64,000 nucleotides of DNA, taken from assembly GCA_039924845.1 (NCBI GenBank), contig JBDTAC010000073.1:8614-72613 (forward strand), read 5' to 3'. Positions 1,050 to 64,000 of this stretch are shown here, piece after piece. Positions within the stretch are counted from its first letter, which is position 1. Each line of letters starts with the position of its first letter. The translations under genes and the position numbers were made by a program. Source of the DNA: Bacteroidia bacterium (GTDB lineage Bacteria; Bacteroidota; Bacteroidia; DATLTG01). The notes beneath the pieces are model-generated. The model had not been told where the DNA came from. It was given only the letters and a program-made list of their open reading frames with translations, and searched no databases.

Positions 1050-1165
1050 CTTATTTTGTGAAACAAATGTACTATATAAAGGGAAATGAAACGTCCGAAA
1101 TTAGCGTTTGAAAAATTATTTTTTGAAAGCCTCTTTTGCATTATATCGTATATTTGTTTTGATTT

Positions 1166-2071
1166 ATGGAAGCCATTCAACAATTGATAAAATCTTTTAA
1201 AGCGGGCGATGCGAAAGCGTTGGCGCGTTGCATCACCATTGTTGAAAACGAATTAGAAGGACATTCGGAAATTTTAGCATCGCTAACGTTTACTAAAAAT
1301 ACACCTTTGATTGGCATTACTGGTCCACCAGGTGCAGGGAAAAGCACTCTCGTAAATGCGGTGATTTCGAAATTATCAGAACAAAAAAAGAAAATCGGAA
1401 TTGTTGCCATTGATCCTACATCGCCTTTTAATTACGGTTCTTTACTCGGAGATCGCCTACGAATGAGCGAACATTTTACGGATGAAAATATTTTTATTCG
1501 TTCGCTTGCTACGCGCGGATCGCTCGGTGGGTTGTCTGCTAAAACCATAGAAATTACAGATGTGATGCGTGCTTTCGGTTTTGATTATGTGTTTGTGGAA
1601 ACGGTGGGCGTGGGACAATCGGAAGTAGAGATTGCGGGTTTGGCGGACACGACGGTGCTTGTGTTGGTTCCAGAATCGGGCGATGATATACAAACCAGTA
1701 AATCTGGAATTATGGAGATTGCTGATATTTTTGTAGTGAATAAATCCGACAGAGAAGGCGCAGATATTTTTATGAAAAACCTGAAGCAATCTGTTGTTTC
1801 TAAAAGCGATTGGCACATTCCGATTTTAAAAACGATTGCTTCTCAAAATATTGGAATTATTGAGCTTGTAACTGCAATTGAGCAACATTTTAAAATAGGA
1901 ATTACCAACGAAAAAAAAATATTTTTGTTAGCTGAGAAAGCCTATAAATTGATACAATACGAGCGGATGAAAACGGTTTCTAAAAAAGAATTGCAAAATA
2001 AAATTTCTGTAAAAATAAAATTTCCTGATTTTAATTTGTATTGTTTTGTGAAGGATTTTTTCGCAGAATAA
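1166..2071 (+). CDS. meaB: methylmalonyl-CoA mutase-associated GTPase MeaB/ArgK
   Basis: 301 aa. P-loop GITGPPGAGKSTL, then the VETVGVGQSE and NKSD motifs characteristic of the MeaB/ArgK G3E GTPases. Confidence 0.85.
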   Translation: MEAIQQLIKSFKAGDAKALARCITIVENELEGHSEILASLTFTKNTPLIGITGPPGAGKSTLVNAVISKLSEQKKKIGIVAIDPTSPFNYGSLLGDRLRMSEHFTDENIFIRSLATRGSLGGLSAKTIEITDVMRAFGFDYVFVETVGVGQSEVEIAGLADTTVLVLVPESGDDIQTSKSGIMEIADIFVVNKSDREGADIFMKNLKQSVVSKSDWHIPILKTIASQNIGIIELVTAIEQHFKIGITNEKKIFLLAEKAYKLIQYERMKTVSKKELQNKISVKIKFPDFNLYCFVKDFFAE

Positions 2072-2184
2072 TTCTCCGGAAATAGTGCTTCGAAAAATTA
2101 TTTTTTTGAACGTGTTTTTTCTTCTCCTTTACAGCGTGCGAATCAGCGCTTATTTTCCTTACTTTTGAAAAAAATAAAATAATT

Positions 2185-3054
2185 ATGTTAAAATCTATGA
2201 CCGGTTTTGGAAAATCAAGTATTGATTTTTCTGAAAAAAAAATTTCTGTTGAGATGCGCTCTTTAAACAGCAAACAATTAGATCTAAGCGTTCGCATGCC
2301 AGGACGATACAAGGCGAAAGAAACAGAATTACGTTCGGAATTGGGAAAAATTCTCGATCGCGGAAAAGTGGATGTCGTAATTTATACCGAAGAAGAAGAG
2401 CGCGAAAAAAAATTTTCTGTCAATAAAGTATTAGCTAAACAATATTTTGACGAGTTGAAAGCCTTGGAAACAGAGCTGGATCAAACACCTCAAAATTATT
2501 TATCGGTGATTTTAAAAATGCCAGATGTATTGCAAGTAGAAAATTCAGAGCCAGATGAAAGCGAATGGTCTTCGGTAATGATTGCCGTAAAAGCAGCAGC
2601 TGAAAAATTAAATGAATTTCGCGGAGACGAAGGAAAGGTATTGGCGCAAGAGCTCGGAAAAAGAATTGAGAATATTTTGAAAGGTCTGAAAGACGTAGAA
2701 GAAGCTGATCCTTTAAGGATAAAAAAAATCAGAGATCGAATTCAAAAAAATATTTCTGAAGTTGTTGTTGTAGATAAAATAGATCATAACCGTTTCGAAC
2801 AAGAAATGATTTATTACGTTGAAAAAATTGATATCACAGAAGAAAAAGTGCGCCTAAAAACACATTGTAATTATTTTACGACAACGATGCAAGAGCCTTC
2901 TTGCGGAAGGAAACTCGGATTTATTTCCCAAGAAATTGGTCGCGAAATTAACACCATTGGCTCGAAAGCAAATGATGTAAGCATTCAAAAAATAATTGTT
3001 CAGATGAAAGATGAATTGGAAAAAATTAAAGAACAATCGCTAAACGTTTTGTAA
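2185..3054 (+). CDS. yicC: YicC family stress-induced protein
   Basis: 289 aa. N-terminal M(L)KSMTGFG motif and C-terminal region typical of YicC/TIGR00255. Sits directly upstream of gmk, the conserved arrangement. Confidence 0.85.
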   Translation: MLKSMTGFGKSSIDFSEKKISVEMRSLNSKQLDLSVRMPGRYKAKETELRSELGKILDRGKVDVVIYTEEEEREKKFSVNKVLAKQYFDELKALETELDQTPQNYLSVILKMPDVLQVENSEPDESEWSSVMIAVKAAAEKLNEFRGDEGKVLAQELGKRIENILKGLKDVEEADPLRIKKIRDRIQKNISEVVVVDKIDHNRFEQEMIYYVEKIDITEEKVRLKTHCNYFTTTMQEPSCGRKLGFISQEIGREINTIGSKANDVSIQKIIVQMKDELEKIKEQSLNVL

Positions 3055-3055
3055 A

Positions 3056-3619
3056 ATGAACGGTAAATTAATTATTTTTTCAGCTCCTTCCGGTGCAGGA
3101 AAAACAACCATTGTACATCATTTATTGAAAGTAAATTCTTTGTTGGAATTTTCCGTTTCGGCTTGTAGTAGAGCCAAAAGAGGAACTGAAAAAAATGGCG
3201 CGGATTATTATTTTTTAAGTGTAGAAGAATTTAAAAAACGAATCGAAAACAATGAATTTATTGAGTGGGAAGAAGTATATGAAAATCATTTTTATGGAAC
3301 ACTTCGCAGTGAAATTGAGCGTATTTGGAAAATGGGCAAACACGTTATTTTTGATGTGGATGTAGACGGAGGATTGAATTTGAAAAAACAATTTGGTGCG
3401 CAAGCATTGGCTATTTTTGTGATGCCGCCTTCCATTGCCAGTTTAGAAAAACGATTGAAAGGAAGAAAAACAGAAACGCCGGAAAGTATTGCCAGACGTA
3501 CTGCTAAAGCAGTTGTAGAATTAGAAAAAGCACACTTGTTTGATAAAATTTTATTGAATGAACATTTGCATATTGCCTTCGCGGAAGCAGAAAAATTAGT
3601 GAACGAATTTTTAACCTGA
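3056..3619 (+). CDS. gmk: guanylate kinase
   Basis: 187 aa. GKLIIFSAPSGAGKTT P-loop and a guanylate kinase fold. The gene starts 2 bp after the yicC stop. Confidence 0.9.
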   Translation: MNGKLIIFSAPSGAGKTTIVHHLLKVNSLLEFSVSACSRAKRGTEKNGADYYFLSVEEFKKRIENNEFIEWEEVYENHFYGTLRSEIERIWKMGKHVIFDVDVDGGLNLKKQFGAQALAIFVMPPSIASLEKRLKGRKTETPESIARRTAKAVVELEKAHLFDKILLNEHLHIAFAEAEKLVNEFLT

Positions 3620-3627
3620 TTTTTTAA

Positions 3628-4203: not shown

Positions 4204-4317
4204 AGAGCCGAAATTAGTCTTCAAAAAAATAATTTTTCAAAACACTTTTTCAAGTAAAAAAAAAGTTTTATTTTTACAGATATAGATTATTTTGATATCT
4301 CTTAAAAACCTAAAACC

Positions 4318-4678: not shown

Positions 4679-4712
4679 TAAGGCTTCGAAAAATTAATTT
4701 TTCGAAGCCTTA
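4679..4712. terminator. bidirectional hairpin terminator, perfect 34-bp palindrome taaggcttcgaaaaattaatttttcgaagcctta
   Basis: Perfect inverted repeat with G/C-containing outer arms and an AAAAATTAATTTTT centre. It lies between the convergent hypothetical gene and dxs. Confidence 0.7.
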
Positions 4713-6672: not shown

Positions 6673-6807
6673 AGGTATGAAAATTTAATTTTTGCACGGG
6701 ACATTCTTCCATTGAAAAAATAGGCTTTGAAAAAATATTTTTTTGAAGGCATTATTTCTGTATCAAAAACTAATTCGAAGAAAAACTATCTTTGCAAAAA
6801 ATAAATC

Positions 6808-7776
6808 ATGAATCGTTTACTTACAGGCGTACAAAGCACAGGCATTCCACATCTCGGAAATTTACTCGGAGCCATTATTCCGGCAATTGAACTTTCTAAA
6901 AAAGGTGCGCACGAATCTTTTTTTTTCATTGCGGATATGCACTCGCTTACCACCGTTCGCAATTCTGAAACATTGAGAAACAACACGTACAGCACCGCAG
7001 CGGCGTGGCTTGCTTTTGGTTTCGATACCGAAAAAAATGTTTTTTACAGACAGTCCGATGTAACGGAAGTATGCGAATTGACTTGGATTTTAAGCTGTTT
7101 AACACCTTTTCCGATGTTGGCAAACGCACATTCTTTTAAAGATAAATCAAATCGTTTGGCGGATGTAAATGCTGGATTATTTACCTATCCAGTTTTGATG
7201 ACGGCAGATATTATTTTGTACGATGCCAACATTGTTCCTGTGGGGAAAGATCAATTGCAACACCTCGAAATGGCGCGCGATATTGCCGGAGTTTTTAATC
7301 GTACGTATGGAGAAACATTTGTTATTCCAGAACCGATGATTGATGCAAAAGTGATGATTGTGCCTGGTATCGACGGACAAAAAATGAGTAAATCGTATAA
7401 TAATTTTATCAATATTTTCTTACCAGATAAGGAGTTGAAAAAAATTATTTTATCCATTAAAACCGATACTACTCCTTTAGAAGCACCAAAAAATCCGGAT
7501 ACGTGTAACGTGTTTGCACTATATCAATTAATGGCATCAGAAACGCAAATTGCCGAAATGAAAGCGAATTATTTGAAAGGCGGATACGGTTACGGAACTG
7601 CTAAACAAGCGCTTTTTGAACTCATCGTCGAAAAATATAAAAACGAACGCGCATTGTTTCTTCATTACATGAACAACACAACCGAAATAGAAAAAAAACT
7701 TCAACAAGGCGCTATTAAAGCAAAAGCTGTCGCGCAACAAACATTAAAAAAAGTACGCGAAAAAGTGGGATACTAA
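6808..7776 (+). CDS. trpS: tryptophan--tRNA ligase
   Basis: 322 aa. HIGH-like GIPHLGN motif plus KMSKS: class I aminoacyl-tRNA synthetase, TrpS length. Confidence 0.9.
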   Translation: MNRLLTGVQSTGIPHLGNLLGAIIPAIELSKKGAHESFFFIADMHSLTTVRNSETLRNNTYSTAAAWLAFGFDTEKNVFYRQSDVTEVCELTWILSCLTPFPMLANAHSFKDKSNRLADVNAGLFTYPVLMTADIILYDANIVPVGKDQLQHLEMARDIAGVFNRTYGETFVIPEPMIDAKVMIVPGIDGQKMSKSYNNFINIFLPDKELKKIILSIKTDTTPLEAPKNPDTCNVFALYQLMASETQIAEMKANYLKGGYGYGTAKQALFELIVEKYKNERALFLHYMNNTTEIEKKLQQGAIKAKAVAQQTLKKVREKVGY

Positions 7777-7845: not shown

Positions 7846-7877
7846 TGTCATTCTGAACGCAGTGAAGAATCTGCACG
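7846..7877. repeat. short hairpin repeat copy 1: tgtcATTCTgaacgcagtgaAGAATctgcacg
   Basis: Same flanks and 5-bp ATTCT/AGAAT stem as the copies at 22541-22564 (inverted), 22594-22620 and 25184-25215; the loops differ. Confidence 0.6.
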
Positions 7878-7899
7878 TTTGAAAAATATTTTTTCAAAC
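7877..7899. terminator. palindrome gtttgaaaaatattttttcaaac after trpS
   Basis: Perfect 23-bp inverted repeat with the conserved A/T core. An A-rich run precedes it and an imperfect hairpin (aaaaatcccgca..ttgcgagattttt) follows at 7911-7946, before the convergent peptidase gene. Confidence 0.55.
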
Positions 7900-7973
7900 A
7901 AGAAAAAACAAAAAAATCCCGCATTATTTATTGCGAGATTTTTCATTTGAAAAAATAATTTTTTGAACTATTT

Positions 7974-9500
7974 TTATTTAATGGCGCTTTGATAAAAATT
8001 TTCTGCATCCGTTTTTAATTTCGCATCATCGGCTTTGTTCACATATAACATGTGTCCAGAATTGTAATAAGTAAGCGAAATATTTTTTCTCACATCTTTG
8101 CGCAAACCCATGTGATCAACGGCGTATTCGGCATTAAAAAAGGGAGTTGCCAAATCGTAATAACCGCAACATATCATCACTTTTAAATACGGATTTTCAG
8201 TCATCGCATCACGCAACGTTTCAGAAACATCTAAATAACTATTCGAGCTGCCAAAACTCCAAGGCCACACATTGGTAAGGGCTTCGTACTGCATATCGCT
8301 TTTGTAACCCAAATCTTTACGGATGTATTCATTAAATACGCCGTTAAAAAGTCCGCTTACGCCTGAATAACTTGGATCGTAAGAAGGTGCTTCGCCTGCG
8401 TCATCGGCATCTTCGCCGGTGTAACGACTGTCGTAACGACCTACCGTTTTGCCATCATCGCGCAATAATTGCTTGAAAAATCGCCAATCTTGGATGCGTT
8501 CGTTTGCGCTTCGAATGTATTCTTTGCTCAGTCCAGTAAAATAATTAAGCGAGTCAATTACTTTGTTGGTAAGCTCTATAGGTGCTTGATCGCCCAATAC
8601 TAAAAAATAATTGTACGTGCCTTCCGCAAAAATTTTTGTCTTTTGCGCTAAATCTGAAGGGCTCATTGCTTCCAATTCTGGTGAAAGTTTTTTATGAAAT
8701 TGAGCCGTGGTAGCGTAGGTTGGCAGATACAGCACATACGGAATTTCGTTGCCTTTATTAAATTCTAAATATTGATAATTAAGTACCGACGAAATAAGCG
8801 TAATACCATTCAAATACATTCCATACTCATTTTGCAAATAGCCGGAAAGACCCGAAGCGCGCGTAGTTCCATAACTTTCTCCAGTCAAAAATTTCGGACT
8901 TCCCCAACGATCGTTACGCGTTGTATACAATCGGATAAAATCTCCAACAGAAGCAATGTCTTGCGCATATCCGTGAAAACGGCGCGGACTCACACCTTTG
9001 TTGGTACGACTGTAACCAGTAGATACCGGATCGATAAAAACAAGATCCGTAAAACCAATCCAAGAGTTTGGATTGTCACCGTAAGTGTAAGGAGGCGCTG
9101 GCATTCCGCCATTGTCATCTCCAAAATGCACTCGTATCGGACTAATTGCGCCCATGTGCAACCAAATTGACGAAGAGCCTGGACCGCCATTAAATGCAAA
9201 GGTTACAGGACGTTTTGCAGCGGGCGCATCGTTGGTATAAGCAATGTAAAATATCTTTGCGAGAAGTTTGCCTAAACTGTCTTTCATAGGCATATAGCCA
9301 GTTGTAGCGGTATAATTAATTTCTTTTCCATCTATTGTGATGTGATGATGCGTAATAACGGGCGGCGGAACGCTGTCGCTTTTGTCGTACATCGCGCTAG
9401 CGTCTACAGAATGCGATTTTTCGGTATTCTTTTGTGCATACGAATTGTAAAATCCGATAAAACTAAATAGACAAACGGAAAATAGAAGATTTTTTTTCAT
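7974..9500 (-). CDS. S10 family serine carboxypeptidase, secreted
   Basis: 508 aa. N-terminal signal peptide. GGPGSSS, GESYG and C-terminal His-region motifs of the S10 carboxypeptidase family. Confidence 0.8.
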   Translation of the reverse strand: MKKNLLFSVCLFSFIGFYNSYAQKNTEKSHSVDASAMYDKSDSVPPPVITHHHITIDGKEINYTATTGYMPMKDSLGKLLAKIFYIAYTNDAPAAKRPVTFAFNGGPGSSSIWLHMGAISPIRVHFGDDNGGMPAPPYTYGDNPNSWIGFTDLVFIDPVSTGYSRTNKGVSPRRFHGYAQDIASVGDFIRLYTTRNDRWGSPKFLTGESYGTTRASGLSGYLQNEYGMYLNGITLISSVLNYQYLEFNKGNEIPYVLYLPTYATTAQFHKKLSPELEAMSPSDLAQKTKIFAEGTYNYFLVLGDQAPIELTNKVIDSLNYFTGLSKEYIRSANERIQDWRFFKQLLRDDGKTVGRYDSRYTGEDADDAGEAPSYDPSYSGVSGLFNGVFNEYIRKDLGYKSDMQYEALTNVWPWSFGSSNSYLDVSETLRDAMTENPYLKVMICCGYYDLATPFFNAEYAVDHMGLRKDVRKNISLTYYNSGHMLYVNKADDAKLKTDAENFYQSAIK

Positions 9501-9680
9501 GAGAATAGATATATAAATAAAGGCTTTCGTGCAAATATAATTATATTTTTTATTGAAAAAATTTTCTGGCGAATACAGATTTTATCTTCGAAAAAATATT
9601 TTTTTGAAGACCTTTTTTTCGTTCAAAATTTCGTGTTTGAAAAAATTATTTTTAGAGCACGTAAAATCCACAAATAAATT

Positions 9681-12518: not shown

Positions 12519-12586
12519 GTAAAACGATAATTTGGATATCCGCGCAATTAGTATAAATTTGTGCTTCCAAAAAAATATTTTTTCAA

Positions 12587-13171: not shown

Positions 13172-13209
13172 GCGTCTCGAAAAAATATTTTTTCGAGACG
13201 CTTTTTTTT
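13172..13209. terminator. rho-independent-type terminator gcgtctcgaaaaaatattttttcgagacgc + T8
   Basis: Perfect 30-bp palindrome (8-bp G/C arms around A6-TAT-T6) followed by TTTTTTTT, downstream of efp. Confidence 0.8.
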
Positions 13210-13317
13210 GCGTTCAAATTTTAGCGAAGATTTCTCAAATAAATGTACCTTTGAATCGTATTAATCTTGGCTATTTAAAATAGTTTCATTACGAAAAATG
13301 AAAAAATATTTTTACAG

Positions 13318-14247: not shown

Positions 14248-14271
14248 TCCTGTTTCAAAAAATAATTTTTC

Positions 14272-48455: not shown

Positions 48456-48465
48456 GATTGAAAAA

Positions 48466-52266: not shown

Positions 52267-52284
52267 CGTCAAAAAAATAATTTT

Positions 52285-53710: not shown

Positions 53711-53745
53711 GGTTCAGAAAAATATTTTTTCGAACCGCTTTTAAT
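53711..53745. terminator. near-perfect palindrome ggttcagaaaaatattttttcgaacc + gcttttaat
   Basis: 5-bp G/C arms plus the A/T core (one mismatch, or a G.U pair in RNA), 6 nt after the folP stop. Confidence 0.6.
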
Positions 53746-54945: not shown

Positions 54946-55884
54946 ATGAAAAAAATAATTTTCCTAAGTGCTTTTTTTCTGTATTCTTTAAGTAATTTTG
55001 CACAGCAATTACCTTATTATACTCAGTTTAGAGCCAATGATTTATTTTTTAATCCTGCTATAGCAGGAACAAAAAAATTGATTGATATACGTACTGATTA
55101 TCGTTTGCAATGGGTTGGATTTGATGGTGCGCCTGTTACCAAAACACTCACCTTAAACAGCCGTTTTATGAATGGAAAAATGGGTGCGGGAGCTTGTATT
55201 TATGTAGATCAAACAGGACCAACCACGCGTACTAATTACATGTTAGATTACGCCTATCACATAAAATTTAACGATGCTGAATTATCTTTTGGATTATCTG
55301 GATCGATGACCGAATATTTTTTAGATGGCGGCTTAATGACGATACACAATAGCCAAGATCCATCCGTCAATCAGGCTTTAACCGATAAATCATGGGCGCC
55401 CGATGCAGGAGCTGGGATTTATTTGTACAATGATCGCTATCATTTCGGATTAAGTATGTCGAATTTATTGCAAGGCACGGAACGTTTCAAAGCTTCTGAT
55501 GCCAAAGTTGCTTTCGCACCTCATTATTATTCTTCTATAGGATATAATTTCTCCGTCAATCCCGATTATATTTTTGAACACACACTTTTTATTAATTATG
55601 TTGGTGGCGCACCATTTTTAGTAGATTACAGTTTGAGAATGCACTACAAAGAAAAAATGTTTATTGGTTTGTGTTACATCATGCAAGATGCTATTTCATT
55701 ACAAGCTGGCGTAACGGTTAAAACAAATTTTCAAGTTAGTTATTCATACGATTTGGTAACTTCGCCACTGCATCTTTACAACAACGGATCGCATGAAATA
55801 ATGCTTATTTACAGCACCGATTTGAAAAAGAAAAAAGGTACGAATAGCGATTTTCTGAAAAAGAAATACGGGTATCTTTTTTAA
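54946..55884 (+). CDS. PorP/SprF family type IX secretion system membrane protein
   Basis: 312 aa. Signal peptide plus the conserved QLPYYTQFRANDLFFNPAIAG start of the PorP/SprF beta-barrels. Sits immediately downstream of a type B CTD cargo gene, the usual arrangement. Confidence 0.85.
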   Translation: MKKIIFLSAFFLYSLSNFAQQLPYYTQFRANDLFFNPAIAGTKKLIDIRTDYRLQWVGFDGAPVTKTLTLNSRFMNGKMGAGACIYVDQTGPTTRTNYMLDYAYHIKFNDAELSFGLSGSMTEYFLDGGLMTIHNSQDPSVNQALTDKSWAPDAGAGIYLYNDRYHFGLSMSNLLQGTERFKASDAKVAFAPHYYSSIGYNFSVNPDYIFEHTLFINYVGGAPFLVDYSLRMHYKEKMFIGLCYIMQDAISLQAGVTVKTNFQVSYSYDLVTSPLHLYNNGSHEIMLIYSTDLKKKKGTNSDFLKKKYGYLF

Positions 55885-55937
55885 GCGTCGAAAAAATAAT
55901 TTTTCGAATGCGTTTTTTCTCCTTGAAAAAATATTTT

Positions 55938-57155
55938 TTAGGAAAGATTAAATTTTTCAACTGCCATTTCACACACTGCACTTCCAATTGCCAGCGATGC
56001 CGTTGCCGCCGGAGAAGGCGCATTTAAAATATGAATGGCGTTTCCGCGATGTTCAATTTTAAAGTCGTCAATCATTTCACCTTCGGGAGCCAATGCCATT
56101 GCGCGAACACCCGCTCTTCCCGGAACAATATCGTCCATTTGCAAATCAGGAATTAGTGTGCGCAAGCGTTTCAAAAAATATTTTTTCGAAAAAGCGCCGC
56201 GGTATTCGTCCAAACCGAATTTCATATTCTTGGCAAAAAATTTCCAGGTTCCGCCAAAACTAAATGCTTCGGCAGTATCGCGTAATGAAAAATCTGTTTT
56301 TCCGTAACCTTCGCGTTTAAAAACAAAAACCGCATTCGGTCCGCATTCCACGCCACCGTGAATCATTCGTGTAAAATGAACACCCAAAAACGGATATTTC
56401 GGATTGGGAACCGGATAAATTAAATTTTTCACTTTGTGCATTCCTTTTTCAGATAAATCAAAATAATCGCCTCTGAAACCAACAATGGCAGCATCTGTTT
56501 TCGTGCCTTCTTTTTTCGCGATGCGATCGGATTGCAATCCCGCGCAAGTAATAATATAGCTGCCCGAAAAAATATTTTTTTGAGTGATGACATTTGTGTA
56601 ATTCTCGTGGTGTTCAAACGCTTTTACTTCTTCTCCTGTCAAAACTTTACTTCCCGGAAATTTATTTTCGATTAATTCTCTGTATTTTCGAGTAACTTCG
56701 GAGTAATCAATGATTCCGGTGCAAGGGACCCAAATTCCTTCGATGCCTTCGCAAAAAGGTTCAATCTCTTTTATCTTGTCGCGATTTATTTTTTCGATTC
56801 CTTCTACATCGTTTGCCAAACCGTTATTGAAAACTTTGTTCATATGCGCCAATTCCGATTGATGCGTTGCCACAATTAATTTTCCGCAGATGTCGTGTGC
56901 AATTTTATGTTCCTTCGCGAAAGCAACCAATTCACGTCTTCCATCCACACAATTTTTTGCTTTATACGAACCTGGTTTGTAATAAATTCCGGAATGAATA
57001 ACGCCCGAATTATGCCCGGTTTGATGTGCAGCTACTTCTTTTTCTTTTTCAAGAACAAGAATTTTTTTTTGAGGAAATTTTAAATTGATTTTATAAGCCG
57101 AAGCCAAACCAACAATTCCTCCGCCTACAATAATGATGTCGTATTTATTTTCCAC
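55938..57155 (-). CDS. lhgO: L-2-hydroxyglutarate oxidase (FAD-dependent)
   Basis: 405 aa. N-terminal IIIVGGGIVGLASAY dinucleotide-binding motif and the LhgO length/pattern. GTG start. Confidence 0.75.
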   Translation of the reverse strand: MENKYDIIIVGGGIVGLASAYKINLKFPQKKILVLEKEKEVAAHQTGHNSGVIHSGIYYKPGSYKAKNCVDGRRELVAFAKEHKIAHDICGKLIVATHQSELAHMNKVFNNGLANDVEGIEKINRDKIKEIEPFCEGIEGIWVPCTGIIDYSEVTRKYRELIENKFPGSKVLTGEEVKAFEHHENYTNVITQKNIFSGSYIITCAGLQSDRIAKKEGTKTDAAIVGFRGDYFDLSEKGMHKVKNLIYPVPNPKYPFLGVHFTRMIHGGVECGPNAVFVFKREGYGKTDFSLRDTAEAFSFGGTWKFFAKNMKFGLDEYRGAFSKKYFLKRLRTLIPDLQMDDIVPGRAGVRAMALAPEGEMIDDFKIEHRGNAIHILNAPSPAATASLAIGSAVCEMAVEKFNLS

Positions 57156-57195
57156 TGAAAAAATATTTTTGCAAAATTAAAATAATTTTATGGAT

Positions 57196-57830
57196 TGTTA
57201 TCCACGATTTATAGCCCACGATTTAAATCGTGGGCTAATAGAAATAAAATATTGAAATAACCGTTTAAACGGTTTAACAAACACGTCTAGAAATGTCGCA
57301 TTCATATAACAAAATAGGACTTCATGTTATTTTTGCTACTAAATTTCGTATCCCATTAATTAGTTCTTTTGTTGAAATAAAAATATATAGCTATATGCGC
57401 CAACAATTGATAGATAATGGTTGTACTGTCAGAATTATTAATGGTATGCCTGATCATATTCATTTGTTGTTTTTACAAAATCCTAAAATGGCTATTTCAG
57501 ATATATTTACAATCAAAAAGCACATCATTCAAAAAAAGCTTTTAGTAAAGAATACGAAGAGTTTATTGTAGTAAATGGGTTCTTAAAAGAAGATGAGTAA
57601 CGACGATCTCAGTAACAAGTGCTCAAAGATGTAAAGGTTCCTATTTGTTTAAAATGTGTGATTTATGTAACTTTCCTTCTTAGTTATGTAAGAATATTGA
57701 TTTGTTATTGCTCAGCTTTGTCGAAATAATAATTGGTATTAAAATATCTGGTATTTCGACTTCTCTACTTTTATCAAAATTAAAATAGATATTGTGAAAG
57801 AATCTCGGGTGGGCTTGGTAAATAATACGT
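57196..57830. mobile_element. decayed IS200/IS605-family insertion sequence
   Basis: Sub-terminal hairpins (tagcccacgatttaaatcgtgggcta at 57209-57234; ataaccgtttaaacggtttaac at 57255-57276) precede a truncated HuH transposase ORF. A partial match to the left hairpin (cgggtgggct) lies near 57805-57820. The exact ends were not determined. Confidence 0.45.
57293..57600 (+). pseudogene. tnpA: IS200/IS605 TnpA (Y1 HuH transposase / RAYT-like) remnant, frameshifted and truncated
   Basis: 92-aa ORF with an HIHLL HuH motif. After a frameshift in an A-run the +1 frame continues as ...KKAFSKEYEEF, resembling the conserved segment before the catalytic Tyr. The catalytic Tyr region is missing. Confidence 0.55.
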
Positions 57831-57865
57831 ATCTTGATAAAAACGCAAATTAATAACTCTCAAAT

Positions 57866-58441
57866 TTGAAACTCTACATTAAAAATATGGTCAGCCTTCG
57901 CTGTAAGATGCTGGTCAAAGAAGAGTTGAAAAAACTCGGACTTCATTTTATTATTGTTGATTTAGGTGAAATCGAAATCATGGAAACTATTTCTGCTGAA
58001 TTGCGAGAGGATTTGAATATCGCCTTACTTAAATCAGGTTTGGAGCTGATGGACGACAAAAAAGCGATTTTGATTGAAAAAGTAAAAAATCTAATTATCG
58101 AGATGATTCATCATTCAGATGATTTGCCGGAAGTGAATTATTCGGATTACATAAGTGAAAAATTAAAATACGATTATACTTATTTGTCCAATATTTTTTC
58201 GGAAGTGAAAGGCATAACCATACAGCAATTTATCATTATTCATAAAATTGAAAGAGTAAAAGAATTTTTGCTGTACGATGAACTTAATCTCACGGAAATA
58301 TCCTATAAATTGCATTACAGCAGTGTAGCACATTTGTCTAATCAATTCAAAAAAATCACAGGATTTTCTCCCTCTCACTTTAAACAGTTAAAAGAGAAAA
58401 GGCAAAATACAATTGAAGAAATTGGGAATTCGACGTTATAA
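57866..58441 (+). CDS. AraC family transcriptional regulator
   Basis: 191 aa with a C-terminal AraC-type double HTH. Confidence 0.7.
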   Translation: MKLYIKNMVSLRCKMLVKEELKKLGLHFIIVDLGEIEIMETISAELREDLNIALLKSGLELMDDKKAILIEKVKNLIIEMIHHSDDLPEVNYSDYISEKLKYDYTYLSNIFSEVKGITIQQFIIIHKIERVKEFLLYDELNLTEISYKLHYSSVAHLSNQFKKITGFSPSHFKQLKEKRQNTIEEIGNSTL

Positions 58442-58450
58442 GAAAATAGA

Positions 58451-61093
58451 ATGGAGAAACTAAAAAGAGAAAAATCTGAGTACGGTAGAAGTTTGATGGA
58501 AGCAAGTTTAGATTCTTTATTTGTGGTAAATCCCATTGGTAAGATTTTAGATGTAAACGAAGTTACGCTGAAGACTACAGAAAAATTGAGGGACGAGATT
58601 ATTGGTACCGACTTTTTAAAATATTTTACTGAACCCGAAAAAGCACGAAAAGCTTACGAACAAATATTTGCCAAAGGGATTATAAAAAATTATTCACTTA
58701 CCATAAAAGATGGAAAAGAAACTCCTGTATTGTGTAATGGTTCGGTTTTTAAAGACAACAAAGGAAATGTAGAAGGAGTTGTGATTACTATCAGAGATAT
58801 TACGGTTAGAAAAGCCGATGAGTTAATCATTGCCAACAAAGAATTAGCATTTCAAAACGAAGAAAAAGGAAAACGTGCCGATGAGTTAATCATTGCCAAC
58901 AAAGAACTAGCATTTCAAAACGAAGAAAAAGGAAAACGTGCCGATGAGTTAATCGTTGCCAACAAAGAACTTGCTTTTCAAAATGATGAAAAAGAAAAAC
59001 GTGCAGCAGAATTAGTTATTGCTGACGTAGAACTTCTTTTTCAAAACAAAGAAAAAGAAAGAAGAGAAATTGCAAATAAAGAATTGGAAGCATTTAGTTA
59101 TGTTGCAAAATTAGCTTCTCAATATTCACTTAGTCTTATAGAAGCCAGTCGTGATCCATTGGTTACCATCAATACGAAAGGTAAAATTACGGATATGAAT
59201 GAAGCAACGGCAAATATTACAGGACTAACTCGCAAAGAGCTTACAGGTACAGATTTCTTTAATTATTTTACGGAACCACAAAAGGCTCGTGAGGTGTATC
59301 AGGAAGTTTTTGCGAAAGGTTCAGTTGCCGATTCTCCATTAACACTTCGTCATAAAGATGGGAAACTTACCGATGTATTATTTAACGGTTCTGTCTATAA
59401 AGATGACAAAGGCAATGTATTAGGTGTGGTAATTGTTGCGAGAGATGTTACCGACCAAAAAAGAATTGCAACCGAATTATTGGAAGCAAAAATATTCGCC
59501 GAGTTAGCTACAGAAATTGCTGAAGAAGCAAAACGTAAAGCAGAAAGCGCTACTCGTATTGCAGAAGATGCGGTAAAAGCGAAGCAGCAATTTTTGTCGA
59601 ATATGAGTCATGAAATTCGTACACCTATGAATGCCATTATTGGTTTTACTAAAGTGGTATTGAAAACAGATTTATCGTCCAAACAAAAAGAATATTTATC
59701 GGCAATAAAAGTGAGCGGTGATGCTTTAGTTGTGCTTATTAACGACATACTTGATTTGGCAAAAGTAGATGCTGGAAAAATGAACTTCGAGCACATTCCT
59801 TTTAAATTGGCATCGTCTATTTCCGCTATGTTGCATTTGTTTGAAACTAAAATTCAGGAAAAAAATTTAGAATTAGTTAAGGAGTACGATACTAATATTC
59901 CCGACGTATTGGCGGGTGACCCTGTGCGCCTGCATCAAATTATTTTAAACTTGGTAAGCAATGCCGTAAAGTTTACAACTGAAGGAAAAATAACAGTGAG
60001 TGTTCGTTTAGTATATGAAGACAATGAAAAAATAAAAGTAGAATTTGCCGTTAAAGACACAGGAATTGGAATAACGGAAAATAAAATAAAAAATATTTTT
60101 GAAAATTTTCAACAAGCAACCAGTGGCACGTCCAGATTATATGGAGGAACGGGTTTAGGACTTGCCATTGTTAAACAACTGGTAGAACCGCAGGGAGGTA
60201 CTATACGTGTGGAAAGTAAAATGGGCGAAGGCTCTACATTTAGTTTTATATTGCCTTTTTTAAAAACAAATGCAGCAGCTGAATTAGAAAACAACTTAGT
60301 GGAATTAGATACTGACGTTAAGAACATAAAAGTATTGGTGGTTGAAGACATTGCGCTTAATCAATTATTAATGAAAACGCTGTTTGATGATTTTGGTTTT
60401 GAACCAGACATTGCAGATAATGGAAAAATAGCGATTGAAAAACTAAAGACACAATCGTACGATATTATTTTGATGGATTTGCAAATGCCCGAAATGAATG
60501 GCTTTGAGGCAACTGAATACATCCGAAATAAAATGAATTTAAAAATTCCAATAATTGCTTTAACAGCCGATGTAACTACGGTTGATTTAGCAAAGTGCAA
60601 AGCCGTTGGTATGAATGATTATATTTCAAAGCCTGTTGACGAAAGGATATTATACAATAAAATAATTAGCTCGGTAAGAAAAACGATATCTATAAAACAG
60701 GATGATCAAAAAGAGAACAAGAGCAAAAAAACAAAATGTATAGACTTAAATTATTTAACCCATCGTACCAAATCTAATCCAACATTGATGATGGAAATGA
60801 TATCGCTTTATTTAGAACAAACACCGCCACTGATTAGTGCCATGAAAACGAGTTTGCAAAATAAAGATTGGAATTTATTACAAGCTTCAGTGCACAAAAT
60901 GATTCCCTCTTTTTCAATTATGGGCATCAGTGCAGACTTTGAAAATATGGCAAAAAAAGTACATGAATATGCCCGCAATCAGCAACAAGCAGATAACATA
61001 TCTGATTTGGTTTTGCAGCTCGAAAATATATGCACGCAAGCATGTCTTGAATTGGAAGAAGAATTTAATATAATTAAAAACAAAAAAGAATGA
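58451..61093 (+). CDS. hybrid sensor histidine kinase/response regulator (2x PAS, HisKA, HATPase_c, REC, HPt)
   Basis: 880 aa. PAS cores, H-box SHEIRTPMNAI, N/G1/G2 boxes, REC domain and C-terminal HPt. Contains three tandem 54-nt repeats encoding ADELIIANKELAFQNEEKGKR. Confidence 0.85.
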   Translation: MEKLKREKSEYGRSLMEASLDSLFVVNPIGKILDVNEVTLKTTEKLRDEIIGTDFLKYFTEPEKARKAYEQIFAKGIIKNYSLTIKDGKETPVLCNGSVFKDNKGNVEGVVITIRDITVRKADELIIANKELAFQNEEKGKRADELIIANKELAFQNEEKGKRADELIVANKELAFQNDEKEKRAAELVIADVELLFQNKEKERREIANKELEAFSYVAKLASQYSLSLIEASRDPLVTINTKGKITDMNEATANITGLTRKELTGTDFFNYFTEPQKAREVYQEVFAKGSVADSPLTLRHKDGKLTDVLFNGSVYKDDKGNVLGVVIVARDVTDQKRIATELLEAKIFAELATEIAEEAKRKAESATRIAEDAVKAKQQFLSNMSHEIRTPMNAIIGFTKVVLKTDLSSKQKEYLSAIKVSGDALVVLINDILDLAKVDAGKMNFEHIPFKLASSISAMLHLFETKIQEKNLELVKEYDTNIPDVLAGDPVRLHQIILNLVSNAVKFTTEGKITVSVRLVYEDNEKIKVEFAVKDTGIGITENKIKNIFENFQQATSGTSRLYGGTGLGLAIVKQLVEPQGGTIRVESKMGEGSTFSFILPFLKTNAAAELENNLVELDTDVKNIKVLVVEDIALNQLLMKTLFDDFGFEPDIADNGKIAIEKLKTQSYDIILMDLQMPEMNGFEATEYIRNKMNLKIPIIALTADVTTVDLAKCKAVGMNDYISKPVDERILYNKIISSVRKTISIKQDDQKENKSKKTKCIDLNYLTHRTKSNPTLMMEMISLYLEQTPPLISAMKTSLQNKDWNLLQASVHKMIPSFSIMGISADFENMAKKVHEYARNQQQADNISDLVLQLENICTQACLELEEEFNIIKNKKE

Positions 61094-61524
61094 AAAACAA
61101 TAATAAAATAAACCTTTTTTTGGTAGATGACGATGCGGTGTTTTTAAAATCACTTGAAATTGAGTTTTTAGAACATGCTGATTTTAATATTGAAATGTTT
61201 GCAACGGGGGAACTTTGCATAGAGAACTTAGCGCACAATCCAGATGTAATTATTTTAGATTACCACTTGGATGGCATTGATAAAAATGCAATAAACGGAA
61301 TAGAAACACTGGATAAAATAAAAGAATTTAATCCGAATATTCCTGTTATCATGCTGTCCTCTCAAGATAAAATTAATGTGGCTGTTAACTGTATGCACCA
61401 TAAAGCAACTGATTATGTGGTAAAAAGTGAAACTGCTTTCATACGTCTGAAAAAGATTATTACCACAGTTCTACGACAACAAGAAACGGAAAAGCAATTG
61501 AATTGGTACATAGAAAGGATGTAA
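61090..61524 (+). CDS. stand-alone response-regulator receiver protein
   Basis: 144-aa REC domain (DDD...D, S/T, K pattern). It overlaps the hybrid kinase stop by 4 nt (ATGA). Confidence 0.8.
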   Translation: MKNNNKINLFLVDDDAVFLKSLEIEFLEHADFNIEMFATGELCIENLAHNPDVIILDYHLDGIDKNAINGIETLDKIKEFNPNIPVIMLSSQDKINVAVNCMHHKATDYVVKSETAFIRLKKIITTVLRQQETEKQLNWYIERM

Positions 61525-61670
61525 CTTCTTTTTTATTTTTTCATTCTCCTTTCATCTGTATTGATCCCGTGAATTATGCAAATCATTTACAAGATTGTGT
61601 AACGCTTACGTATAGAAACATCGGCACCTTTGTATCGTAATAATTCAGTTACAAAATAAATCCTAAAAAA

Positions 61671-61928
61671 ATGACAACTACATCAAATCCAGTTAAAGCA
61701 GAGAACCAAAAAGGATCTACTACTGAAAATCAAAAAGGTATTGAAAACCACAAAGAGATTGCATCTCATTGTGAAGCAGCAGCAAAAAATCACTTGGAAG
61801 CGGCAAAGTGCCATACAGAAGGAAACCACGAAAAAGCTGCCCAGTGTACAATTAAAGCGCAAGGACACATTCATCTTGCAAGTAAAGGACAAAGACAAGA
61901 TGCAAAGCATCATGCACTGAATAACTAA
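61671..61928 (+). CDS. small His/Cys-rich hypothetical protein
   Basis: 85 aa. Repeated H..EAAK.H / C-H motifs with no signal peptide; possibly metal-binding. Confidence 0.4.
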   Translation: MTTTSNPVKAENQKGSTTENQKGIENHKEIASHCEAAAKNHLEAAKCHTEGNHEKAAQCTIKAQGHIHLASKGQRQDAKHHALNN

Positions 61929-62118
61929 ATTTCCGTTAGTTCTTAAAAAAGCACTGTGTTATAACATGGTGCTTTTTTTATTCAAAGTCATTGCAAAATT
62001 TGAAACGACAAATCTGTGAATAATGTAACTTATATCCGATTTTGTGTAATACTTCTATAAATAAAGTAGCGCACTTTTGCTTCGTAATTATTTTTAACCA
62101 TTTAAACACTTACAAACT

Positions 62119-62691
62119 ATGAAAAAATTATCCTCATCTATTCTTTTATTTATTGGTGCAAGCATTTTGCTTTCTTCTTGTGGCAACCGATTAATCTCCA
62201 TAACAAAGCGCCACTATAGAAGTGGATATTATGTTGATAATGTTTACAAGAAATCAACAGTAACGCAGCAAGCAAAAAAGCCTGTTTATACGAAACAAAT
62301 GTTGGCTGTTTCACCACAAGTTATTGCGCCGATAGTTGTGAAAGTTGACAGAGGAAATGCGGTGATGCCAATTGCGGTTAAAAAACAAAACGTAAGACTC
62401 GTAACGGCTACAAACAGCAAACCAGTTGTAAATCCACATGTGCTATCTACAAATATGCCTGAGATTGTTTCTGCGAATATCCCGAAAGTTAAAACAATGC
62501 GTGAACGTTTAGATCAAGGAGATAATTATTCAAGCAATGCGCGTAGTCTTTTTTGGCTGGTCATTACGATATTGCTAATTCTATGGCTATTGGCGATTCT
62601 TTCTGGTGGTTGGGGATTGGGAGGATTGGTAAATGTACTTCTTGTTATCGCCTTAGTATTATTTATTCTGTGGCTCTTTCGTTTGATATAG
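62119..62691 (+). CDS. lipoprotein with C-terminal lmo0937-like double-TM tail, hypothetical
   Basis: Lipobox LLSSCGN. The C-terminus LLILWLLAILSGGWGLGGLVNVLLVIALVLFILWLF resembles the small lmo0937-family membrane proteins. Confidence 0.5.
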   Translation: MKKLSSSILLFIGASILLSSCGNRLISITKRHYRSGYYVDNVYKKSTVTQQAKKPVYTKQMLAVSPQVIAPIVVKVDRGNAVMPIAVKKQNVRLVTATNSKPVVNPHVLSTNMPEIVSANIPKVKTMRERLDQGDNYSSNARSLFWLVITILLILWLLAILSGGWGLGGLVNVLLVIALVLFILWLFRLI

Positions 62692-62767
62692 ATTTTTAGT
62701 ACGCAACGTAAAGTTCCGGTTAAAAAAAGTATTTCTTAAAAAATAATTTTCACTTATATATATAACA

Positions 62768-62923
62768 ATGAACAATCTATTATATATCATCGCGATAATC
62801 TTTATCATTGCTTGGTTTATTGGCTTTTTTGCTTTCAATGTAGGAGCTGTTATTCACATCCTTCTGATAATTGCAATCGTCGCAATCTTGTTGCGCCTGA
62901 TAAGAGGTAAAGACATCATTTAA
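62768..62923 (+). CDS. lmo0937 family small membrane protein (51 aa); not in the supplied ORF track
   Basis: MNNLLYIIAIIFIIAWFIGFFAFNVGAVIHILLIIAIVAILLRLIRGKDII: two TM helices and the family consensus (LLYII.I..I.W..GFF.....HILLVIAI.A.L). It is below the 60-aa track cutoff. Confidence 0.5.
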   Translation: MNNLLYIIAIIFIIAWFIGFFAFNVGAVIHILLIIAIVAILLRLIRGKDII

Positions 62924-62970
62924 TGTCAATAAAAATTATAAGATCAAATAAATAATTATAAGAAAATACT

Positions 62971-63936
62971 ATGAAAAAAATCACAATTGTAATGATCGTA
63001 CTATCTTCTTTCCTATTTGGTAGTGAAACTATTTATGCGCAGGTTAGTGCAAGTGTGCAAATTCAGATTGCACCACCAGAAATGCCTGAATATGTGCAAC
63101 CTCCTTGCCCTGTTGATGGGTATGTTTGGGAGCCTGGATATTGGGCTTATGGTATCGAAGGATATTATTGGGTACCCGGAGTATGGATTTATCCAGCACA
63201 AGTTGGCTTTTTATGGACGCCCGGTTATTGGGGTTTTGAAGGTGGCTATTATGGCTGGAGTGCTGGTTATTGGGGAGAAAATGTTGGTTTTTACGGCGGA
63301 GTATGTTATGGAAATGGATATAACGGTGAAGGATATTACGGCGGACGCTGGGAAGGACAGCATTTTCGTTATAACACAGCAGTAAGTAACGTAAATGTAA
63401 CTGTCATCCACAATACTTACGTAGATAGAACCAATATTAATAATGTTGAAGTTAACCATTCCAGCTTTAATGGAGTAGGAGGAGTTGCGAGACGTCCATC
63501 TGCAAATGAACAAGTAGCGATGAAAGAAAAGCATATTCAGCCCACTTCCAGACAATTATCACATCAACAGGCCGCAAGTAAAAATAGAAACGAACTTTAT
63601 TCAGTAAATAAAGGGCATCCTGCTTCAACATCCACGAGCAGAGCAAGTAAGCAACCTGTTCATAATGCAGCAATTAAAACGCATCAAGCGAGTCCTGCAA
63701 ATGGTAATAGAACCAAACAACAATCTCCTACTCCAACGCAGAATCGTGTTCAGAGAAACGCTGTACATCACCAAGCTACAGCTCCGAAACACACTAATCA
63801 ACAACAAGAAAGAAGACAACCTGAACATCATGCTGCTGCCCCAAAACAAGTTAATCAACAACAAGAAAGAAGACAGCCTCAAGAACATGCTGCTCAACCA
63901 AGAGAACAAGAACATAGTAGAGAAGGAGGAAGATAA
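62971..63936 (+). CDS. secreted Trp/Tyr/Gly-repeat protein with Q/H/R-rich tandem-repeat tail; paralogue of 17693-17995
   Basis: 321 aa. Signal peptide, PPCPVDGYVWEPGYW...YYWVPGVW...LWTPGYW...YGWSAGYW repeats, then a low-complexity tail containing ~57-nt tandem repeats. Confidence 0.6.
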   Translation: MKKITIVMIVLSSFLFGSETIYAQVSASVQIQIAPPEMPEYVQPPCPVDGYVWEPGYWAYGIEGYYWVPGVWIYPAQVGFLWTPGYWGFEGGYYGWSAGYWGENVGFYGGVCYGNGYNGEGYYGGRWEGQHFRYNTAVSNVNVTVIHNTYVDRTNINNVEVNHSSFNGVGGVARRPSANEQVAMKEKHIQPTSRQLSHQQAASKNRNELYSVNKGHPASTSTSRASKQPVHNAAIKTHQASPANGNRTKQQSPTPTQNRVQRNAVHHQATAPKHTNQQQERRQPEHHAAAPKQVNQQQERRQPQEHAAQPREQEHSREGGR

Positions 63937-63961
63937 TAAATCTCTTTGTTTCTACCTTTAT

Positions 63962-64000
63962 AAAAAACACGTTTGAAAAAATATTTTTTCAAACGTGTTT
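63962..64000. terminator. A6-cacgtttgaaaaaatattttttcaaacgtg-TTT (runs to the window end)
   Basis: Perfect 30-bp palindrome with the conserved A6-TAT-T6 core, 26 nt after the stop at 63936. Confidence 0.75.

Follow-up and report, generated by a model that had tools for sequence, protein, structure and literature searches.

A lineage-specific, hyper-abundant palindromic A/T word in the genome of an uncultured Bacteroidia bacterium

The window analysed here is the whole of a 64,000-nt stretch of contig JBDTAC010000073.1, from a metagenome-assembled genome (MAG) of an uncultured Bacteroidia bacterium, with a GC content of 35.3%. Its genes include lysC, efp, lpxD, hemW, manC, dnaA, plsY, prmA, tpiA and folP, and both the genes and the spacers between them carry numerous copies of a palindromic word of about 16 bp made up of A and T. 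We find that this word is lineage-specific, hyper-abundant on duplex DNA, and kept at orthologous sites in two species. The window sequence is carried identically by two independent Logan assemblies, so that an assembly artefact is excluded. The evidence base consists of this one window and about 25 kb of sister-species sequence, and the conservation and island tests described below are small samples.

Copies of the word were collected with the regular expression A{5,}[AT]{1,4}?T{5,}, which matches 61 times in the 64-kb window; 57 of these copies are of a strict form, A5+ T(W)A T5+. When one mismatch to the three commonest 14-mer templates was allowed, the number of sites rose to 74, or 1.16 per kb. 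The top 14-mers of the whole window are AAAAAATATTTTTT (n=17), AAAAAATAATTTTT (n=16) and AAAAATTATTTTTT (n=9), and the word makes up 14 of the 20 largest repeat families shown by a repeat finder for the window. The 16-mer GAAAAAATATTTTTTC has only 3 exact occurrences and is therefore to be read as a consensus. The original prediction had listed 52 intervals for the word, all of which hold a copy (49 fully, and 3, at 10428, 15873 and 47923, with an offset of 5-7 nt). Nine further copies were found, at 1911, 29153, 31461, 33349, 36885, 39258, 43184, 52981 and 60088. All copies and one-mismatch near-copies are given below; the strand entry in the feature table is '.' for every copy.

1111-1124, copy ttgAAAAATTATTTTTTgaa, intergenic, between divergent genes
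1911-1926, copy in meaB-like gene 1166-2071 (+)
2093-2107, copy tcgAAAAATTATTTTTTTgaa, intergenic (+/+), 29 nt past a stop
4223-4237, copy ttcAAAAAAATAATTTTTcaa, intergenic (+/+)
4689-4702, copy with TTAA centre within a 10-bp extended stem, convergent junction, terminator-like
6730-6744, copy, intergenic, between divergent genes
7882-7894, copy with 5 extra pairs, convergent junction
7950-7964, copy between the stop of gene 7974-9500 (-) and that gene's motif-free terminator
9591-9605, copy, intergenic (-/-), first of a 49-nt pair
9640-9653, copy, intergenic (-/-), 35 nt past the lysC stop
10423-10437, copy deep in lysC (SKNIFL)
12569-12583, copy in the leader of efp, ending 3 nt short of the ATG, just after a consensus TTG-N19-TAnnTTTG promoter
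13180-13193, copy at the tip of hairpin 13172-13201, followed by T8, efp terminator-like (-19.4 kcal/mol)
13301-13313, copy 4 nt before the lpxD ATG
14257-14270, copy between the lpxD stop and the GTG start of a kinase gene
15868-15883, copy in hemW (QKNNFL; others NKDAFL), common to the sister species
16104-16117, copy in hemW (KNNFF for conserved KNTP[IV])
16461-16477, copy in hemW (KKNNFL)
17205-17218, copy in a cyclase gene (KNYFF; outgroups KKF[MF]F), common to the sister species
18730-18744, copy, intergenic (+/+)
19520-19533, copy capping a 14-bp extended hairpin that has A-run/T-run flanks, bidirectional terminator-like (-26.5 kcal/mol)
19555-19569, copy 35 nt after the 19520 copy, convergent junction
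19957-19971, copy in a Na/H exchanger gene
21880-21892, copy, intergenic, near tRNA-Leu
23752-23765, copy in the first codons of manC (MALKKYFL)
26066-26081, copy in a DUF6268 gene
28366-28380, copy abutting the TGA stop of a CLC channel gene
29153-29166, variant copy A9T5 in a glycosyltransferase gene
29338-29352, copy in a glycosyltransferase gene (KKIIF, ATA codon)
29744-29757, copy in an unannotated gene ending at 30674
29979-29993, copy in the unannotated gene ending at 30674 (KKIFF, ATA codon)
30615-30627, copy in the unannotated gene ending at 30674
31341-31353, copy 7 nt upstream of the start of an ftsE-like ABC gene (-)
31461-31474, copy in first codons (MKKIFL)
32143-32156, TTAA-centred copy capping a 14-bp extended hairpin, convergent junction, terminator-like
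33349-33363, copy in the first codons of an FKBP gene (MKKNIF)
33384-33398, copy that provides FKBP gene 33389-34333 (-) with its TAA stop
35241-35255, copy in first codons, its TTG flank being the start codon
35794-35807, copy in first codons after a GTG start
36885-36899, copy within a 53-nt direct repeat (partner 39232-39284)
39258-39273, copy within the partner repeat 39232-39284, downstream of a motif-free terminator
40387-40400, copy in a TP_methylase-like gene
41387-41401, copy with the motif-free dnaA terminator on one side and the start of the next gene on the other
43184-43201, long variant A7TAT9 in the 380-nt spacer upstream of dnaA
43246-43259, copy in the 380-nt spacer upstream of dnaA
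43269-43285, copy 8 nt past the plsY stop
47916-47928, copy in a 1500-aa gene
48461-48475, copy supplying the prmA TAA stop, 6 nt before the start of the 1500-aa gene
49106-49120, copy in prmA
49974-49989, copy in tpiA
52271-52286, copy that takes up the spacer between two co-directional genes
52981-52993, variant A8T5 in folP (EKKFF; others EKKLL)
53361-53374, copy in folP (KKYFL)
53718-53730, copy 19 nt past the folP stop, partial stem and T-run
55891-55904, copy, convergent junction, 3 extra pairs and T-run
55926-55939, copy abutting the stop of a DAO (lhgO-like) gene, 35 nt from the 55891 copy
56173-56186, copy in the DAO gene
56567-56581, copy in the DAO gene
57158-57170, copy upstream of the DAO gene, 3 nt from its start
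60088-60100, only copy in the motif-poor 57.2-63.9 kb stretch (hybrid kinase gene)
63976-63989, copy capping an 11-bp extended hairpin after gene 62971-63936
2987-3000, near-copy, 1 mismatch
7032-7045, near-copy, 1 mismatch
7440-7453, near-copy, 1 mismatch
15013-15026, near-copy, 1 mismatch
18395-18408, near-copy, 1 mismatch, common to the sister species
23480-23493, near-copy, 1 mismatch
28994-29007, near-copy, 1 mismatch
30106-30119, near-copy, 1 mismatch
36769-36782, near-copy, 1 mismatch
49752-49765, near-copy, 1 mismatch
53143-53156, near-copy, 1 mismatch, in folP
53410-53423, near-copy, 1 mismatch, in folP, 49 nt after 53361
54950-54963, near-copy, 1 mismatch
62738-62751, near-copy, 1 mismatch

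The excess of the word over composition is real and strong. Markov models of orders 1, 3, 5 and 7 were trained on the window itself and the strict form was simulated; the expected numbers were 0.9 (Markov-1), 1.7 (Markov-3), 5.0 +/- 2.2 (Markov-5) and 17.5 +/- 5.3 (Markov-7), against 57 observed. The mirror arrangement, in which the T-run precedes the A-run, served as a control and was found 4 times, with 4.9 expected. An external control was assembled from 82 loci (1.21 Mb), of which 80 lie around efp in other Bacteroidia and 2 come from the nearest HemW relatives (70% identity, GC 0.355); it includes loci matched in GC (0.32-0.36). These loci carry 0.032 sites per kb, and the relatives at 70% HemW identity, with the same GC, carry 0.05. 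Runs of A5+ or T5+ number 16 per kb in the window and roughly 8-12 in the GC-matched relatives. In view of the near-absence of the word from 1.21 Mb of relatives, AT-richness, homopolymer bias and signal peptides of the MKKIFF type do not explain it, and these causes, codon bias included, are also ruled out by the Markov expectations of orders 1 to 7 and by the mirror control. The original prediction had stated that the word lies far above what composition allows and that signal-peptide strings and homopolymer bias, although they explain some copies, leave the intergenic and mid-gene ones unexplained; both statements hold in the window, the first when checked, as had been proposed, against the Markov-5 background.

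Among 5.8 billion proteins, close relatives were found in one species only (HemW 78%, FolP 77%; GCA_035533735.1), the next being at most 70% identical. This sister species has about 80% nucleotide identity to the window and carries 0.9-1.1 sites per kb, frequently as one-mismatch forms. The search for the word in relatives advocated in the original prediction thus finds it abundant in the sister species and nearly absent from the other Bacteroidia loci. Pattern scans of metagenome and viral collections with TGAAAAATTATTTTTTTGA gave almost exclusively single, chance-like matches. The only clearly motif-rich contigs near the GC of the clade (about 0.32-0.34) were two, L172 and L176, from the Joint Genome Institute (JGI) sample that holds the sister species; the remaining loci of high density were very AT-rich or very short, and no motif-rich phage was found in these scans. 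A search for the 14-mers in the literature accessible to us found no prokaryotic report.

The window and the sister species were aligned over 6.4 kb (80% identity). Of the 11 window sites in this alignment, 6 coincide at least in part with a site of the sister, and opposite most of the remaining ones stands a near-match. Within genes, identity is 93% in core columns; it falls to 79% in the remaining columns (P = 5e-4) and to 86% in AT-rich controls (P = 0.065). In spacers, core columns are 72% identical and the rest 54% (P = 0.005), and the comparison with AT-rich controls gives P = 0.023. Since the sites are mostly orthologous and better conserved than their surroundings, the word predates the split of the two species and is maintained. 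Synteny with 80 relatives in GTDB was too weak for intergenic comparison, only efp-lpxD being conserved.

The copies are distributed unevenly with respect to genes. Twenty-nine are wholly intergenic, 5 lie across a gene end, 5 fall in the first 12 nt of a gene, and 22 are deep in genes, so that 27 in all lie wholly inside genes. The density is 7.65 per kb at spacers and gene edges and 0.37 per kb in gene interiors, in agreement with the positional bias originally described; the density in gene interiors alone is more than ten times the total density in relatives. A copy is present in 23 of the 32 spacers of at least 30 nt, including six divergent promoter regions and 5 of the 6 sizeable convergent junctions, which copies had been predicted to mark. 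Ten copies lie within about 12 nt of a start codon, some of them in leaders 1-4 nt before it, and 3 of the 5 that straddle a gene end supply or abut the stop codon. The examples given earlier for start codons (efp, lpxD, the kinase, manC, ftsE, the 1500-aa gene and lhgO) and for stop codons (28364, 33389 and 48466) were all confirmed. Four consecutive genes for FKBP-type peptidyl-prolyl isomerases are found at 32188-35810 on the minus strand; three of the four start with a copy (MKKNIF, (L)KKIFF and (V)KNYFL), and in two of them the TTG or GTG flank of the copy is the start codon.

Copies in coding sequence use all three reading frames. In hemW, folP and the cyclase gene, the alignments indicate that they arose by substitution rather than insertion. 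The three copies in HemW align without gaps with 11 homologues; NKDAFL is replaced by QKNNFL, and the conserved KNTP[IV] by KNNFF in the window and KNSFF in the sister species. FolP (2 sites) and the cyclase (1 site) are likewise free of indels, with EKKLL changed to EKKFF and KKF[MF]F to KNYFF, respectively. Codon choice is also affected: isoleucine after Lys-Lys is encoded by ATA in 7 of 9 cases, as compared with an overall ATA usage of 18% (P = 1.6e-4). Pentapeptides of the type K[KN][INY][FI][FL] occur 1.39 times per 1000 aa in the window, 0.77 in the sister species and 0.08 in GC-matched relatives, a 17-fold excess of the window over the relatives. Replacement of residues without indels, the ATA bias and the pentapeptide excess together imply that the DNA word has reshaped proteins. 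These results show that the motif multiplies through point substitution in place, not through transposition, and that it overrides protein and codon preferences.

The variants of the word reduce to R-A5-W-TA-W-T5-Y if the base next to the runs is counted into a pyrimidine-purine step, which may be TG, CG, or a CA whose A joins the A-run. In full it can be written 5'-(T)-Y/R-A5-W-T/A-W-T5-Y/R-(A)-3', with a modal span of 16 bp (16 bp in 33 copies, 15 bp in 17 and another length in 11). The two W positions vary about independently, giving the centres ATAT, ATAAT/ATTAT and ATTAAT, and the runs range over A5-9 and T5-9. The border bases are G..C in 19 copies, G..G in 18, C..C in 7 and C..G in 4. 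Beyond the core, the two flanks mirror each other in composition: TT/AA stands beside the border base, about 4 positions enriched in GC come next, and an A/T-rich stretch follows. Coding copies have this pattern too; it reaches about 13 bp on each side and brings the total footprint to roughly 40 bp. Pairing between left and right flanks is no commoner than when partners are shuffled among sites, and hairpins formed by the core alone have only 0 to -5 kcal/mol. The orientation of asymmetric variants shows no bias relative to transcription (8 same, 10 opposite) or to dnaA. The absence of flank covariation and of an orientation preference favours a reading of the word as duplex DNA. Dyad symmetry, indifference to G or C at the border, and an A-tract, TpA and T-tract set between flexible steps suggest that the predicted reader is a dimeric or shape-reading protein. 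Two further interpretations of the G..G copies were rejected: in G-U wobble hairpins the stabler strand ignores the direction of transcription (e.g. 4223, 33384, 48461), and as target-site duplications (e.g. GAGGT at 18730) symmetric same-base flank matches equal the shuffle expectation. A search of Rfam found no family for the word, tRNA-Leu being the only match.

Some copies recur in pairs, either 35 nt apart (19520/19555, 33349/33384, 55891/55926) or 49 nt apart (9591/9640, 53361/53410). The spacer pair (9590-9652, 63 nt) shares 78% identity with the folP pair (53360-53422), which suggests a larger composite architecture of core, about 8 nt, T-run, A-run and core. A role as promoter or UP element was rejected. 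A consensus Bacteroidetes promoter, TTG-N19-TAnnTTTG, stands just upstream of the efp-leader copy. The window has only 7 perfect TTG-N17-21-TAnnTTTG promoters, copies keep no fixed distance to TAnnTTTG, and a sigma-70 scan gave background. UP elements (AAAWWTWTTTT) and sites of the Fis/IHF type do resemble the word, being A-tract sites that are read by shape, with an A-run then a T-run, flexible pyrimidine-purine steps and a G/C border of either kind. Such sites are, to our knowledge, degenerate, occupy fixed promoter positions or are present in few copies, and none has been described as an exact, iterated word; the present word, unlike UP elements, has no fixed distance to the TAnnTTTG -7 boxes of the window.

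Hyper-abundant genomic words are rare, and the cases known to us are the uptake signal sequences (USS) of Pasteurellaceae, the DNA uptake sequences (DUS) of Neisseriaceae, and HIP1 (GCGATCGC) of cyanobacteria. HIP1 has been unexplained for about 30 years. USS and DUS are short and number hundreds to thousands per genome, far more than composition predicts. USS and DUS, like the word described here, occur about once per kb in both orientations, form clade-specific dialects, and lie in several frames within genes. They are enriched between genes, with some copies in terminator hairpins, are depleted in putatively foreign DNA, and have an extended flank composition round the core, as in the AT-tracts of USS. 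Their imprint on proteome and codons is of the same kind (PMC2817400). Over-abundance, in-gene copies made by substitution with such an imprint, and a clade-limited dialect are thus all found for the word. However, USS and DUS belong to other phyla, and their role has been demonstrated by uptake assays and, for DUS, by the receptor ComP, whereas the word is known from sequence alone.

HIP1 is also a palindrome, hyper-abundant in and between open reading frames (ORFs); its orthologous sites are better conserved than controls, nothing points to a role in peptides, RNA or gene regulation (PMC5861425), and its function is debated between nucleoid structure and transformation or uptake (10.1101/2024.09.10.611283; 10.64898/2026.06.24.733823). 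Hyper-abundance of a palindrome within and between ORFs, and sites conserved above control (in a small sample), are seen for the word as well. HIP1 differs in being a GC-rich word of 8 bp, found phylum-wide and recognised by two orphan methyltransferases, whereas the word is A/T-only, about 16 bp long and confined to two sampled species. Palindromes of the HIP1 type are distributed periodically on a scale of 10-90 kb; for the word, local spacing within the 64-kb window is random. Because both sequence and phylum differ, the word is an analogue of HIP1, not a member. The class of phenomenon (USS, DUS, HIP1) is known; what sets this case apart is the phylum, the A/T-only word of ~16 bp with its ~40-bp footprint, and the very narrow clade range.

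Our leading model, put forward by analogy and favoured at somewhat less than even confidence, is that the word acts as a USS/DUS/HIP1-like tag of self-DNA in transformation or recombination. A dimeric or shape-reading component of the lineage's machinery for DNA uptake or recombination would recognise a pair of rigid A-tracts that meet at a flexible TpA hinge, with flexible pyrimidine-purine steps on the outside, and fragments bearing the word would be preferentially taken up or recombined. Purifying selection on proteins would remove most coding copies, leaving the 20-fold intergenic excess, and a few intergenic copies would have gained GC-rich arms and come to act also as terminator hairpins. 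From a density of about 1 per kb inside genes, we infer that each copy must gain an advantage in transmission or fixation. Selection on about 1 site per kb would hardly yield an advantage able to invade conserved protein positions, which favours molecular drive, and the only mechanism known to us that gives such an advantage is biased uptake or recombination in natural transformation, as for USS and DUS and as proposed for HIP1. Molecular drive by biased uptake or recombination is attributed to Maughan et al. 2010, as cited in PMC3458573, where easy kinking is also proposed to matter in USS uptake. Within Bacteroidota, Riemerella is naturally transformable and prefers its own DNA, with no uptake sequence known (PMC7965970, PMC8459023). 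The fuller proposal, that the word is the first uptake or self-recognition sequence of Bacteroidota, an A/T-only dyad of ~16 bp and ~40-bp footprint serving as a shape-read kink site that rewrites conserved protein positions, is possible but on the whole doubtful.

Several observations weigh against the self-DNA tag. The link to uptake rests on analogy, and the word, palindromic, A/T-only and variable in span, differs from USS and DUS with their non-palindromic, asymmetric cores of fixed length that contain G+C. Neither a gene for competence, a DNA methyltransferase or a nucleoid protein nor a candidate for the reader was found within the 64-kb window. Spacing over the window shows no regularity (coefficient of variation 0.99, as in random placement), and regular spacing was dismissed. 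The conservation test covers only about 160 motif columns of one 6.4-kb alignment and is marginal in genes when compared with AT-rich controls. The stretch from 57.2 to 63.9 kb holds 1 copy where 7 are expected (P = 0.007), which resembles the depletion of USS in acquired genes and would speak for the tag; it is, however, a single region, of putative foreign origin. Finally, the site of a chromosome-structuring protein under selection would give most of the same patterns.

This last explanation, in which an abundant, lineage-specific homodimer that structures the nucleoid or chromosome reads A-tract shape at sites under natural selection, is the main rival, though we think it unlikely. It would account for the dyad symmetry, for a flank that reduces to a pyrimidine-purine step with G and C interchangeable, for an overall footprint like that of an architectural protein, for orthologous conservation, and for the copies in most spacers of at least 30 nt. 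On the other hand, selection per site would be very weak, and neither regular spacing nor a candidate gene is seen in the window. We know of no nucleoid protein that has driven a word of at least 14-16 bp to about 1 per kb or forced the replacement of conserved residues. A precedent for a nucleoid role is the proposal of Xu et al. for HIP1 (PMC5861425). The original prediction had named a DNA-uptake-like or nucleoid-protein site among its three candidates, and it is this one that is favoured by copies that occur in all frames, arise by substitution, are clade-specific and orthologous, and are independent of orientation.

It is improbable that the word is a functionless by-product of a mutation or repair bias of the lineage, such as short-patch repair, nicking, or template switching at quasi-palindromes combined with homopolymer slippage. 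The range of run lengths is what slippage would leave, long A- and T-runs are commoner in the window than in GC-matched relatives, and one-mismatch forms are numerous in the sister species; but the mirror arrangement is not enriched, cores are more conserved than their flanks, and the flanks and modal span are specific. No A/T-specific repair system of this kind is known to us.

Intrinsic termination explains a minority of copies. In six (4689, 7882, 13180, 19520, 32143 and 63976), complementarity extends beyond the core by 5 or more pairs. The folding energy is -17 to -26 kcal/mol for five of them and about -8 for the copy at 7882, which has just 5 extra pairs. Five of the six are followed by a T-run no more than about 10 nt away (directly in three); the run after 63976 meets the end of the window, and none follows 7882. 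Judged by sequence, these GC-extended copies are good candidates for terminators. The succession of A-run, GC-rich segment, core, GC-rich segment and T-run mimics a bidirectional intrinsic terminator (A-tract, GC hairpin, U-tract), an anatomy that the six match and that the average flank composition imitates; they lie at 3' ends and convergent junctions, and most sizeable convergent junctions hold a copy. That the word is primarily a lineage-specific terminator or insulator hairpin, its coding copies being incidental, is nevertheless very improbable. A GC-rich stem with a U-tract downstream of a gene was found at only 6 of the 61 copies, 55 have at most 3 extra pairs, and in most the arms are non-complementary and the position or orientation is unsuited to termination, as for the copies in divergent promoter regions, in leaders just before starts, and deep in genes. 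In addition, canonical GC-rich terminators free of the motif adjoin copies after dnaA and after genes 7974-9500 and 36972-39170, and relatives terminate without the word. The terminator or insulator hairpin first suggested for the word therefore stands for the six extended copies, and for the others fails on flank covariation, weak cores, placement and the motif-free terminators alongside.

A signal at the RNA level, A6UAU6, read by an RNA-binding protein or RNase in mRNA decay or at translation start, is highly improbable. Bacteroidota start translation on A/U-rich leaders without a Shine-Dalgarno sequence, the palindrome is identical in RNA of either strand, and ten copies are close to starts; yet copies also lie in spacers that do not appear to be transcribed, on either strand, asymmetric variants have no strand preference, the flanks are symmetric on the DNA rather than oriented with genes, and Rfam holds no such family.

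The original prediction had also proposed a repetitive extragenic palindromic (REP)-like element mobilised by an IS200/RAYT-type (REP-associated tyrosine) transposase, and the degraded transposase copy it placed at 57293 is a real, truncated Y1 gene (57293-57571; 92 aa covering profile positions 3-74 of 121; Pfam Y1_Tnp E = 1.9e-12; NCBIfam IS200 score 48.7 bits, below the cutoff of 55). Upstream of this gene, at about 57212-57240 (by eye), is a perfect GC-rich hairpin, TAGCCCACGATTTAAATCGTGGGCTA, that bears no relation to the A/T word. Like REPs and bacterial interspersed mosaic elements (BIMEs), the word is short, abundant, palindromic and mostly extragenic, but spread by such a transposase is already contradicted and barely credible: REPs never lie within genes, fold into stable GC-rich stem-loops that carry a conserved 5' tetranucleotide, and flank RAYT genes, whereas the word has 27 intragenic copies made by substitution, weak cores without a stable stem, flank covariation or such a tetranucleotide, and a Y1 gene nearby that lacks the same repeats. 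A miniature inverted-repeat transposable element (MITE) was rejected because the three protein alignments lack indels, the sister species has copies at orthologous positions, and short flanking direct matches are not above chance.

USS, DUS and HIP1 are informative on forces that act at the DNA level as opposed to selection at the protein level, and an independent case in another phylum, with a different sequence, would provide a second system for testing drive against selection. The word would also point to a signal for uptake or self-recognition in Bacteroidota, where none is known despite the self-preference of Riemerella. In practice, it gives binning and host assignment in the clade a sharp signature, and it distorts gene calling, since it supplies TTG and GTG starts and TAA and TGA stops and imitates signal-peptide-like MKKIFF N-termini.

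The motif-poor stretch at 57200-63900 holds the IS200 remnant, an AraC regulator, a hybrid kinase, a response regulator and three unannotated genes, and may be a recently acquired island. The hybrid histidine-kinase gene contains a 63-nt tandem repeat at 58814-59057 (3.9 copies, 87% match), which is in frame (21 codons). The dnaA gene is located at 41482-42912 on the minus strand; the 380-nt A/T-rich spacer upstream of it, 42913-43292, has many long T- and A-runs and three copies of the motif, and may be oriC. Cumulative GC skew over the window shows no clear turn. A 53-nt direct repeat (36859-36911 and 39232-39284, 89% identical), each unit of which ends in a copy, brackets a 732-aa gene at 36972-39170 for a HYR-domain protein sorted by the type IX secretion system (T9SS), which itself has internal repeats of 200-300 nt (37087-38888); the repeat pair could mark a duplication or the boundary of a cassette.

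A second, unrelated repeat, GTCATTCTGAACG(C/G)AGTGAAGAATCT, is present in two spacers, 7847-7872 and 22595-22620 (0 expected by chance), with a degenerate third copy near 25190 (by eye, approximate), and looks like a separate small repeat family. The largest spacer of the window, 25068-25620 (553 nt), has no copy of the motif, no long ORF and no significant Rfam match, and holds short GC-rich inverted repeats, e.g. TAGCTCCGAAGGAG / CTACTTCGGAGCTA. The tRNA-Leu(CAG) gene lies at 21721-21804 on the minus strand and is overrun by the mechanical ORF 19584-21779, so that the true start of the Na+/H+ exchanger is further downstream.

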